Below are positions 26,518 to 32,321 of a stretch of DNA of 64,000 nucleotides, in pieces (the stretch's first letter is position 1; each line of letters opens with the position of its first letter). The position numbers were made by a program, and so were the translations under genes. Under the pieces are notes generated by a model that did not search any database, was not told the DNA's origin, and worked only from the letters and a program-made list of their open reading frames with translations. Source of the stretch: an uncultured Alphaproteobacteria bacterium (GTDB lineage Bacteria; Pseudomonadota; Alphaproteobacteria; Rhizobiales; Xanthobacteraceae); NCBI GenBank assembly GCA_963819915.1, contig CAWFXX010000010.1, forward strand, positions 21,289 to 85,288, written 5' to 3'.

Positions 26518-28665
26518 ATGGTACAGGTAGTCATCCTCGACGATCGAGAGACCAATCGAAAGATTTTTTCGAAGCTTGCCGCTTCGATTGAACCTGGCGT
26601 GATGGTCCATAGCTTCGGCGATCCGCTCGAACTTCTCGCCTGGCTCAAGCACAACACGCCCGACCTCATCGTCACTGATTTCAAAATGCCGACGATGGAC
26701 GGCGCAGAATTTATCTGCCGCCTCCGCGCGCAACCCGATTGCGGCGAGATTCCCGTGATCGTCATAACGGTTTACGAGGAACGCGAATTCCGCCTGCGAG
26801 CGCTCGAGGCCGGCGCCACCGATTTTCTTCACAGCCCGGTCGACCACCAGGAATTCATCACCCGCGCTCGCAATCTCCTGAAGTTGCGCAAGCAGCAGAT
26901 CCAACTCGCCGCCCGAGCCGACAATCTCGCGCAGGAGCTCAAGGATTCTGAGCGTTCGCGCGAAGCCGCGCTGCGCGATTCCAGCGAACGGCTTGCCCAG
27001 GTGATCGATACCGTCCCGGCCATGATCAGCGCCACCGACAACCAGGGACGCATTCTGTTCATCAACGCGTATCTCGCCGAGCTCGCCGGCATCGGCGCGG
27101 CCAAAGCAGTCGGGTTCGATATGCAGCCCGCCTTTGGTGAAGACTACGCGACGCGCAGCAAGGCGCTTGACCGCAAGGTCATCAACACGCAGGCCGCATT
27201 GCCGAGCTTCGAGGAGGAGATCGTCGACGCGAGAGGCACCAAACGCGTGTTCCTGACGACGAAAACGCCGCTGCGCGACGGCGCCAACGCTGTGGTCGGT
27301 GTACTGACCTCTTCGCTCGATATCACCGACCGCAAGCTTGCCGAAAATCATCTTTTCTACATGGCGCACCACGACGGGTTGACCAACCTCGCAAACCGCG
27401 CGCTATTGTCCGACCGGCTGCGCCGCGAGATCGCCCGCACGCGTCGCGGCGACCGCCCGTTTGCCCTTCATCTCATCGATCTCGACGGATTCAAGGACAT
27501 CAACGACGGGCTTGGCCACCAGGCCGGTGACCAGTTCCTTGTCGAGGTTGCCGACCGGTTGCGCCTGGTCGTGCGTGATACCGATACGGTCGCCCGTCTC
27601 GGCGGCGACGAGTTCGCGGTGTTGCAAACGCGCGTGACTCGGAACGAGGACGCGGCCGACATGGCCACCCGCATCCTCGAGGCTATCAACAAGCCCTGGT
27701 CGCATGCGGGCGAGCAGGTCAATTCAAGCGCCAGTATCGGCATCACTATTCACCCCACCGACGGCGCCGACGTGCAGGACCTACTTCGCAACAGCGATCT
27801 TGCGATGTATCGGGCAAAGCACGATGGCGGCAAGGTTTTCCGCTTCTACGCCTCGGATATGGACCGGCGGGCGCGCGCCAGCCTGGTCCTCGACGCCGAT
27901 CTGCGCGAGGCCATCGCCGCGGGCCAATTCGTCCTGCACTACCAACCGCAGATCGCGGTGCGTACCGGTCAGGTTGTCGGCGCGGAAGCGCTGCTCCGCT
28001 GGCAGCGCCCCGGCCACGGCCTCATCGGCCCAAGCGATTTCCTGGCGCGGGCGGAAGAGAACGGACTTATCGTTCCGATCAACGAATGGGCGCTTCGCGA
28101 AGCGTGCCGGCAGGCCAAGTCCTGGCAGCAGCGTGGACAGCCGCCGCTTCGTGTCGGCGTCAACCTGTCGTCGATTCAGTTCTTCAAGCAAAACGTTCCG
28201 TTGCTGGTGACCAAGGTTCTGGCCGAAACCGGGCTTGAGCCTTGGTTGCTCGATCTCGAGCTGACGGAAAGCATCGTCATGCACAACGCCGAAGCGGTCT
28301 CCAAGGACTTGCAGCAGTTGCGCGAACTCGGAGTCGGCATTTCGATCGACGATTTTGGAACGCGTTATTCGACGCTTTCCTACGTCAAACATTTTCCGGT
28401 CGACCGACTCAAGATCGACCAGTGTTTCGTCCGCGACATGGCAAGCAACCCGAGCGATGCCGCGATCGTCCGTGCAATCGTAAGCCTCGGTCATAGCCTC
28501 GATCTCGAGATCGTTGCGGAAGGCGTGGAGACCGTCCAGCAGGCCACGCTTTTGCGTGCCGAAGGGTGCGACGAGGTGCAGGGCTTCTACTACGCGGGCG
28601 CAATGCAGGCTGACGAGCTGATTGCCTACGTCAGGGATATTCGCGCGCGGGCGCGCAGCGCGTGA
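26518..28665 (+). CDS. Response regulator REC-PAS-GGDEF-EAL with an RpfG-like receiver domain
   Basis: ILDD...FGDPL...TDFKMP...[10 protein letters not shown]; PAS; RDTD I-site + RLGGDEF; EALLRW, ELTES, DDFGT, EGVE. Confidence 0.93.
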
Positions 28666-28672
28666 GGCTCGG

Positions 28673-31237: not shown

Positions 31238-31250
31238 TATATCGAGACGG

Positions 31251-32321
31251 TCAGGGACGCGCGTATTTCACGCGACGCAATTGCGCGTTCGCCAGGCGCT
31301 CCATGTTGCGAAGATCCGACTCTTGCAGCCGCATCGCATGTTCGGCCCAGATGTCGGTGACGTCGCGAAGCTCCTCGAGCGAGAGCGGATTGACACGCAG
31401 CCCGACCTCGCGGACACGCCGATGCACGGCATGGTGGCGGCGGTTATGGGCGATGTAGTCGCGCACAGCCTCCTCGCCGCGCCCGTCCTCGGCCAGGACG
31501 TCGATCAAGCCCATCTCATGAAGCTCGGGGGCGCCAAAAACGCGTCCGCTCAGGATCATCTTGTGCGCCCGCGTCATGTCGAGCTTGCGCGCCAGAAAGC
31601 TGAAGGCGCCCATGCCTGGAAACAGGTTGAACAAAATTTCCGGCAGGCCAAACTTGGCTTTCTTTTCCGCCACGAGCACGTTGAAGGAGAGCGCGCCCTC
31701 GAACCCGCCGCCGAGCGCATCGCCTTGGACCAGCGCGATTGTAATTAGCGGCAGATGAAAGCCGACTGACATTTGGTACGCGACGTCGACGCAGTCATGC
31801 GCATAGTTACGCAGTGCATCGATGTCACGCGCGCGAATGCTCTTGATGAAAAAGGCAAGATCGCCGCCGAGATTGTAGACACCTGGAATTCGCGAGCCAC
31901 CGACGAAGTATTTGATCGGCGCAGCCTCGCCCGGCGGCAAGTTGGCGAACATGCGTTGCAACATCCGCCGCATGGAAATCAGCTCTTGCAGCAACGTCGG
32001 CGTGAAGCTCGGCGGCCCTGCCGGATGCATAAAGCACCAGATGCTTTCTTCGTTTGAATTCAGCGTCAGATCGAGTTCGCGAAAACCGGCGCTGCTGACG
32101 CCAGCGTTAAAGTCGATACGGGCGCGCTGGATCGCGCGCTCTTCACGCGCAGACGCAAGATTTGCCGGTGACCAGAGCTCCAATTGCGTTGGAATCCTGG
32201 CCTCCGCCGGCTGAGCAAGATGACCCAGCGACGCAACATTGAGTTTCGTTACGGCCGAACGCAAACTGCCTCCCACTACCAACGGACGGTCTGGCGTTGG
32301 CCACAACAGGACGGCTGCCAC
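31251..32321 (-). CDS. rpfF: RpfF-type DSF synthase (crotonase fold); start uncertain
   Basis: SRIPGVYNLGGDL, ALVQGDALGGGFEGALS, GLPEILFNLFPGMGA with both catalytic Glu; convergent with rpfC. Confidence 0.9.
   Translation of the reverse strand: MAAVLLWPTPDRPLVVGGSLRSAVTKLNVASLGHLAQPAEARIPTQLELWSPANLASAREERAIQRARIDFNAGVSSAGFRELDLTLNSNEESIWCFMHPAGPPSFTPTLLQELISMRRMLQRMFANLPPGEAAPIKYFVGGSRIPGVYNLGGDLAFFIKSIRARDIDALRNYAHDCVDVAYQMSVGFHLPLITIALVQGDALGGGFEGALSFNVLVAEKKAKFGLPEILFNLFPGMGAFSFLARKLDMTRAHKMILSGRVFGAPELHEMGLIDVLAEDGRGEEAVRDYIAHNRRHHAVHRRVREVGLRVNPLSLEELRDVTDIWAEHAMRLQESDLRNMERLANAQLRRVKYARP

Follow-up and report, generated by a model that had tools for sequence, protein, structure and literature searches.

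Does an uncultured, soil-type alphaproteobacterium make and sense signals of the diffusible signal factor (DSF) family, the cis-2-unsaturated fatty acids, and if so, what does the signal control? The question is raised by a locus in a 64,000 nt stretch of contig CAWFXX010000010.1 (the window, referring to the whole stretch) from an uncultured Alphaproteobacteria bacterium (Rhizobiales; Xanthobacteraceae). A first-pass annotation, made from the sequence alone, described an RpfF-type crotonase gene convergent on the gene for an RpfC-type hybrid histidine kinase, which is preceded by a response regulator gene. Earlier work has elucidated DSF-family signaling in Xanthomonadales, Burkholderia, Cronobacter, and Pseudomonas. 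The interpretation as a DSF locus is supported by the clade to which the crotonase belongs, by full-length homology of the kinase to RpfC, and by an RpfG-type receiver in the regulator. We consider it probable that the locus encodes a self-contained three-gene module for DSF-family cell-to-cell signaling, in which the product of RpfF is sensed by RpfC and a phosphorelay leads to an EAL domain that lowers cyclic di-GMP (c-di-GMP).

Organization of the locus

The regulator and kinase genes have the same orientation and the crotonase gene converges on them (Table 1). The three open reading frames (ORFs) lie where the first-pass annotation placed them, with the kinase and crotonase stops 13 nt apart. 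The likely start of the kinase is the ATG at 28673, the first ATG in its frame. This is only 7 nt past the regulator stop, and the regulator and kinase genes therefore form an operon. The crotonase frame is open from a GTG; its true start is probably near 32264-32282, because homologs are 337-343 aa long and a GGGAGG Shine-Dalgarno sequence stands just before a TTG at residue 20. The G+C content is 0.61 across the module, equal to that of the flanks and even over the region.

The crotonase groups with DSF-family synthases

The crotonase is matched by Pfam ECH_1/ECH_2, has its core at residues c.78-356, and is encoded by the only RpfF-like gene of the genome. The motifs that had suggested RpfF (SRIPGVYNLGGDL, ALVQGDALGGGFE, and GLPEILFNLFPGMGA) are all found in its translation. 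The top NCBIfam family is PRK08788 (NF006452; 349.7 bits vs a cut-off of 177), and models of ordinary hydratases give at most 72 bits. In a phmmer search of all Protein Data Bank (PDB) sequences, the four best matches are DSF-family synthases (E 2e-49 to 6e-47): Stenotrophomonas maltophilia RpF-1 (7zq7), Xanthomonas campestris pv. campestris (Xcc) RpfF (3m6m), Cronobacter turicensis RpfF (6dgn), and Burkholderia cenocepacia DfsA (5fus). The next crotonase follows at E 8.5e-14. The catalytic glutamate pair is kept as E208 (in GGGFE) and E228 (in LPE), 20 residues apart and aligned to the RpfF glutamates (E141 and E161 in Xcc).

The AlphaFold model is of modest quality (mean predicted local distance difference test score, pLDDT, 66.8; core 70-90). 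When it is searched with Foldseek, DSF synthases take all of the first 12 places (TMt 0.85-0.87; 0.87 to 3m6m); generic hydratases appear from E 1e-11 on, and Pseudomonas aeruginosa DspI is at rank 40. We also built a maximum-likelihood tree of 103 sequences, comprising 101 RpfF-like rows and the enoyl-CoA hydratase (ECH) paralogs of this genome. A long branch with 100% support separates the two sets. The window crotonase groups with Pseudolabrys metagenome-assembled genomes (99%), and the characterized synthases form one 97% clade adjacent to or inside the alphaproteobacterial diversity. Clustering with ordinary enoyl-CoA hydratases, which the first-pass annotation had named as evidence that would count against a DSF synthase, is seen neither in the tree nor in the Foldseek comparison.

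The core shares 40-43% identity with canonical RpfF and 38% with the Burkholderia-type (BDSF) synthase; between these two, the identity is 39-41%. Canonical proteins are here those of the loci of two sampled genomes whose RpfF passes the cut-off of the NCBIfam RpfF equivalog (NF053515). Judged by these sequence and model comparisons, the crotonase is a member of the DSF-synthase clade and not an ordinary enoyl-CoA hydratase. Ahead of the core lies a clade-specific N-terminal extension of c.60 aa, modeled with low confidence (pLDDT <50 for residues 1-63). The extension (crotonase residues c.15-75, window c.32100-32282) contains a conserved P-TQLELWS motif that is common only to the Pseudolabrys clade (L001-L005).

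The kinase resembles RpfC over its full length

Pfam identifies HisKA, HATPase_c, REC, and Hpt domains in the kinase, in the order proposed in the first-pass annotation, and the motifs listed there are found, RPDSEH among them. No Pfam model matched residues 1-215 at an E-value threshold of 0.001. The kinase is collinear with canonical RpfC over ~800 columns (31% identity, E 5e-99). In one of the canonical loci (L101), rpfB-rpfF is convergent on rpfC-rpfG, rpfG encodes an HD-GYP protein, the spacer is 12 nt (rpfF end 9560, rpfC end 9573), and RpfF is a close match to 7zq7 in the part that aligns. The homology to RpfC, for which a comparison of the sensor had been proposed, extends over the full length and includes the input domain and the DSF-binding hook.

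The input domain aligns with the RpfC/RpfH-type input blocks of the canonical locus (Table 1), and its predicted membrane nature rests on this collinear alignment. A GNG(F/M/L)R(F/Y)G motif is common to the input domains of both (GNGFRFG in the window). In the N-terminal sensor of Xcc RpfC, residues R15, D17, S18, E19, and Q22 are essential for DSF binding (Cai et al., PMC5391125). The counterpart of the hook in that protein is R15-A-D17-S18-E19-x-A-Q22, and four of the five residues are kept in the window kinase (R49, D51, S52, and E53). The consensus of the hook is RLSGR(E/P)DSEH(A/G)Q in the canonical loci and RPD(S/T)EHEM in most alphaproteobacterial orthologs.

The phosphorelay residues H235, D657, K710, and H809 are invariant in 67/67 orthologs. 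The kinase has an insert to which nothing corresponds in canonical RpfC; its profile matches the REC profile (hhalign probability 86%, E 4.8e-6, 111 columns), and its active-site positions are not conserved. By architecture, input domain, hook, and placement, we interpret the kinase as an RpfC ortholog that is predicted to bind DSF.

The regulator combines an RpfG-type receiver with a different output

The regulator contains a receiver (residues 4-117), PAS_4 (157-273, E 2e-14), GGDEF (283-438), and EAL (460-693) domains by Pfam. The GGDEF domain bears the GGDEF motif and an RDTD I-site. The receiver and linker helix are 40% identical to those of RpfG over 171 aa (E 3e-33), including FGDPLxxLAW. 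In three xanthomonad-type genomes the receiver matches RpfG best, at 107 bits, and the runner-up among 44 receivers reaches 51; in the reverse search the RpfG receiver finds the window regulator as best match in this genome (110 bits vs 71; ~40 receivers were compared each way). Because the two are reciprocal best hits, the receiver is assigned as an ortholog of that of RpfG, with the HD-GYP output replaced. Pfam finds no HD-type domain in the regulator, and PAS, GGDEF, and EAL domains are present instead. Because it is without the HD-GYP output, we do not file the regulator as RpfG and treat it only as a putative functional analog. The regulator, labeled rpfG* in the first-pass annotation, is not RpfG, as the HD-GYP domain is missing and the receiver lysine is replaced.

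The catalytic motifs of the EAL domain are intact in 57/57 full-length regulator orthologs and the GGDEF domain is degenerate in eight of them, which points to c-di-GMP hydrolysis, the same chemistry as that of RpfG, as the conserved output. In the window receiver, D8, D9, D54, and T84 are present and the lysine position is Ser106 (codon 26833-26835). D54, T84, and the two acidic residues do not vary among the 57 orthologs. RpfG and both kinase receivers retain the lysine. The regulator slot has other occupants in some related loci: L044 and L079 (c.12.4-14.2 kb) encode REC(Ser)-PAS-HisKA-HATPase with a lysine-less receiver, and the gammaproteobacterial L078 encodes REC(Lys)-HD-GYP, with the lysine kept.

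We considered and rejected the idea that the regulator is a chimera of an RpfG receiver and an RpfR output, as its PAS-GGDEF-EAL part is generic for its class. With RpfR (L107) as the query, four other GGDEF-EAL proteins of this genome score higher than the regulator does (345.8-334.6 vs 331.5 bits). Searched against two Burkholderia-type genomes, the output part does not have RpfR as its best match (RpfR is second in G461 and eighth in G725). A second GGDEF-EAL protein is encoded 6 kb from the module (c.38532-39854, minus strand; 656 aa open frame), and its match to RpfR is about equal to that of the regulator.

The module is widespread in Alphaproteobacteria

A scan of one genome per species gave >590 related genes, the best 80 of which were taken as loci. 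These 80 are almost all alphaproteobacterial and include Pseudolabrys, Microvirga, Rhizobium, Bosea, Ancylobacter, Aureimonas, Pseudovibrio, Inquilinus, Roseomonas and other Acetobacteraceae, Gluconacetobacter, and Sphingomonadales. The regulator, kinase, and synthase genes occur in the same order and orientation in ~65 of the best 80. The arrangement is far beyond chance because it recurs in so many loci from other species, which span Hyphomicrobiales, Acetobacteraceae, Sphingomonadales, and Inquilinus. About 8 of the 80 loci have the crotonase without a kinase within 9 kb. The flanking genes are not conserved outside Pseudolabrys, and we therefore define the module as the three genes.

The synthase family passes its cut-off in 32/401 evenly drawn Alphaproteobacteria (~8%) and occurs in 2/41 genera of the family to which the window belongs. 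Together with the synteny scan, this shows that the rarity implied by the first-pass annotation was overstated. Megaplasmid copies are found in Methylobacterium, Methylorubrum extorquens AM1, Sphingomonas, Bosea, and Microvirga. The family is annotated by NCBI as "crotonase/enoyl-CoA hydratase family protein" and by JGI as "DSF synthase".

Some loci stand out in the scan. On the 586-kb plasmid pMRAD01 of Methylobacterium radiotolerans (L108, 6869-10201), the crotonase gene convergently overlaps a gene for a 776-aa "EAL domain-containing protein", and there is no kinase. Three loci come from records titled Burkholderiales bacterium, Terriglobia bacterium, and Mycobacterium sp. KBS0706 (L003, L017, and L026), yet their copies are of alphaproteobacterial type and fall within Pseudolabrys, Acetobacteraceae, and Inquilinus; the likely cause is mis-binning or mislabeling, or else transfer.

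The lineage had been described as one that normally uses N-acyl homoserine lactone (AHL) signals. LuxI-type synthases do occur in 20/41 genera of the family, but no LuxI-type AHL synthase was found in this genome. Both RpfF-positive genera of the family are without LuxI, a sample (n=2) that is too small to signify. Our literature search on RpfF/DSF, which covered Alphaproteobacteria, Rhizobium, Methylobacterium, and allied taxa, turned up no work on a system of this kind, in line with the first-pass annotation, which knew of no characterized case. A review of Inquilinus limosus is silent on quorum sensing. We regard the module as a real, uncharacterized variant of a known DSF system, and the window as one more member of this variant.

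Proposed mechanism and alternatives

The three proteins are homologous to Rpf components, their catalytic and phosphorelay residues are conserved, and their genes are linked. From this we infer a product, a ligand, a phosphotransfer partner, and a direction of change in c-di-GMP. The most likely product of the crotonase is a cis-2-unsaturated fatty acid, formed when a 3-hydroxyacyl carrier-protein intermediate is dehydrated and its thioester is then cleaved. The N-terminal hook of the RpfC ortholog, together with the membrane input domain, would sense the signal. The kinase would then autophosphorylate on H235, and the phosphoryl group would be relayed via D657 and H809 in a four-step phosphorelay, with D54 of the co-transcribed regulator as the likely acceptor. 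Hydrolysis of c-di-GMP by the EAL domain would be the main output, as a stand-in for the HD-GYP phosphodiesterase RpfG, and the PAS and GGDEF domains of the regulator may add further control. Production and sensing of cis-2 fatty acids could allow the cross-talk with xanthomonads or plants that the first-pass annotation envisaged.

Several observations count against this mechanism. The crotonase has 199.7 bits on the RpfF equivalog, its second-best family, which is below the 550-bit cut-off, and in the tree it lies outside the clade of characterized synthases. Just 2/401 sampled Pseudomonadota genomes pass that cut-off, and the equivalog model is therefore narrow and xanthomonad-specific. In the kinase hook, the fifth DSF-sensing residue (Q22 in Xcc) is Leu, and it is Met in most alphaproteobacterial orthologs. 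There is no rpfB-like gene beside the module. The lysine position of the regulator receiver is Ser in 52, Thr in three, and Ala in two of the 57 orthologs, and never Lys. A receiver without the conserved lysine is a pseudo-receiver by the definition of PMC12632262, so phosphotransfer to the regulator may be slow, or a different mechanism may take its place.

Mainly because the receiver is lysine-less, we keep open an alternative in which ordinary aspartyl phosphorylation is not what switches the regulator. The receiver may instead serve the kinase as a docking or allosteric partner, or PAS_4 may itself bind the fatty acid, giving two inputs. PAS domains of RpfR and RpfS bind fatty acid directly, and PAS_4 is matched in the window regulator at E 2e-14. 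The loss of the lysine throughout the family, with the acidic pair, aspartate, and threonine invariant, is consistent with such a mode, as is the retention of the lysine-less receiver and PAS as a unit with a histidine kinase output in L044 and L079, whereas the REC-HD-GYP protein of L078 keeps its lysine. The strict conservation of D54, the acidic pair, and T84 nevertheless argues that phosphorylation chemistry is still used, and the PAS-GGDEF-EAL part shows no specific relationship to RpfR. Substitutions at the receiver lysine need not abolish phosphorylation (PMC12632262). We consider this alternative unlikely. A bolder reading, equally unlikely, is a rewired DSF circuit in Alphaproteobacteria, in which the RpfC ortholog signals to a lysine-less receiver fused to a PAS_4 domain that perhaps binds the fatty acid itself. 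Outputs would be exchanged between lineages (EAL/GGDEF in most, histidine kinase in some), and signal synthesis would be under the cell-cycle regulator CtrA via a conserved upstream box (see below). Signal production would then be tied to the cell cycle and would not be a simple density read-out.

It is quite improbable that the crotonase acts in metabolism or lipid modification and is not a signal synthase, and that the kinase and regulator sense the state of the membrane or of fatty acids and have no part in quorum sensing. The noncommittal NCBI family name, the score below the RpfF equivalog cut-off, and the loci with no kinase near the crotonase would fit such a role. However, the crotonase is as near to each of two proven DSF-family synthases as those are to each other, it occurs in close and widespread linkage with an RpfC ortholog that keeps the DSF-binding hook, and beta-oxidation genes are not linked. 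We give very little credence to a recent horizontal acquisition of the module from a xanthomonad or betaproteobacterium, without integration into host regulation. Its patchy spread (the 2/41 genera and 32/401 genomes noted above) and the megaplasmid copies in Methylobacterium, Sphingomonas, Bosea, and Microvirga could be taken as signs of transfer. Against this, the G+C content gives no compositional sign of a recent event, the nearest relatives are other Pseudolabrys and Hyphomicrobiales, and the CtrA-type box ahead of the synthase gene is found again in other loci. The derived traits of the alphaproteobacterial loci (lysine-less receiver, PAS-GGDEF-EAL output, and kinase insert) are also not found in gammaproteobacterial loci. 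The DSF-family signaling module with an EAL output remains our preferred reading.

If the module works in this way, ~8% of sampled Alphaproteobacteria would set c-di-GMP by cis-2 fatty-acid signals. Carriers include plant-associated Microvirga, Rhizobium, Methylobacterium, Sphingomonas, and Gluconacetobacter and clinical Inquilinus and Roseomonas, and more organisms would be able to talk to, or eavesdrop on, DSF-producing plant and human pathogens. The module is also present in nonpathogenic bacteria that can be cultured, such as Microvirga brassicacearum CDVBN77, Ancylobacter sonchi, Pinisolibacter aquiterrae, and Gluconacetobacter tumulisoli. The family would also be a natural experiment in swapping the output (HD-GYP, EAL/GGDEF, or kinase) of a conserved phosphorelay. 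A family-wide lysine-less receiver in an apparently working relay bears on how pseudo-receivers are controlled.

Upstream box, neighboring genes, and coordinates

Just 5' of the synthase gene is a TTAA-N7-TTAA box (Table 1), a pattern that we take to be the CtrA consensus; binding of CtrA to the box is putative. Two such sites were observed in the window vs 0.09 expected, the other being at 48014-48028 (TTAAGCGCAATTTAA). A box lies 150-255 nt before the crotonase core in 17/79 related loci (L001-L006, L011, L032, L033, L035-L037, L041, L049, L058, L074, and L079), and 19 of the 23 TTAA-N7-TTAA sites in 1.33 Mb of related loci fall at that place.

The genes next to the module are not conserved with it. 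Upstream are a 139-aa ORF without a Pfam match (24801-25220, plus strand) and, just before the regulator, a gene for an AraC-type regulator with a DJ-1/PfpI domain (25207-26304, plus strand). An AMP-binding ligase gene (22657-24297) was examined as a linked rpfB and rejected; the product is only 27% identical to canonical RpfB, and the gene is not conserved beside the module. No beta-oxidation genes are linked to the crotonase gene in its vicinity.

Table 1. Features of the DSF-type locus, with positions in the 64,000 nt window
Feature	Position	Strand	Remarks
Regulator gene, REC-PAS-GGDEF-EAL	26518-28665	+	715 aa ORF; domains by Pfam
RpfC-like hybrid histidine kinase gene	28673-31237	+	ORF open from TTG 28622, 871 aa
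Predicted membrane input domain of kinase, residues 18-215	28673-29266	+	37% identity to RpfC/RpfH-type input over 180 aa, E 3e-26
Sensor hook of kinase, R49-P-D51-S52-E53-H-E-L56	28766-28789	+	just before first hydrophobic segment; aligned with canonical RpfC sensors
Degenerate REC-like insert of kinase, ~140 aa (residues 462-603)	30005-30430	+	between HATPase_c and REC; gap in canonical RpfC alignment
Spacer between convergent kinase and crotonase stops	31238-31250		13 nt; a terminator hairpin would not fit
RpfF-family crotonase gene, putative DSF-family signal synthase	31251-32321	-	356 aa ORF from GTG
TTAA-N7-TTAA (CtrA-type) box, TTAATCAAAAATTAA	32337-32351		just 5' of synthase gene

Comparison with known systems

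The Rpf system of Xanthomonas campestris and Stenotrophomonas maltophilia consists of the synthase RpfF, the hybrid kinase RpfC, and RpfG, a REC-HD-GYP phosphodiesterase. The window locus shares with it a synthase gene convergent on a kinase-regulator operon with a spacer of 12-13 nt, a crotonase fold with both catalytic glutamates, and a kinase with a homologous membrane input, the RxDSEH hook, and the HisKA-HATPase-REC-HPt order. The receiver is the reciprocal best hit of that of RpfG, and the predicted end point is c-di-GMP turnover in both. In contrast to the Rpf system, the output in the window is PAS-GGDEF-EAL and not HD-GYP, Ser replaces the receiver lysine, the kinase has the extra ~140-aa degenerate REC-like insert, and the locus is without rpfB and rpfH. 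The window synthase also differs in its score under the equivalog cut-off, its clade-specific N-terminal extension, and the CtrA-type box upstream of its gene.

In the BDSF system of Burkholderia cenocepacia and Cronobacter, the gene for RpfF_Bc (DfsA, Bcam0581) is convergent on that for RpfR, a PAS-GGDEF-EAL receptor. As in that system, the window synthase belongs to the same clade (38% identity) and its gene is convergent with one for a PAS-GGDEF-EAL c-di-GMP protein; unlike there, a membrane kinase gene lies between the two and the regulator has a receiver. RpfR is without a receiver, binds BDSF directly, and has an RpfF-interaction domain, in part according to how PDB entries 6dgn and 5fus are titled. 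The window regulator does not fall within RpfR, as its N-terminus is a receiver and its output is no closer to RpfR than are four other GGDEF-EAL proteins of the genome.

Sister variants, likewise uncharacterized, are found among the related loci. The pMRAD01 locus of M. radiotolerans shares the synthase family and has an EAL partner, with the kinase missing. L044 and L079 share with the window the synthase family, the RpfC-like kinase, and the lysine-less RpfG-type receiver with PAS, and differ in having a histidine kinase as the output.

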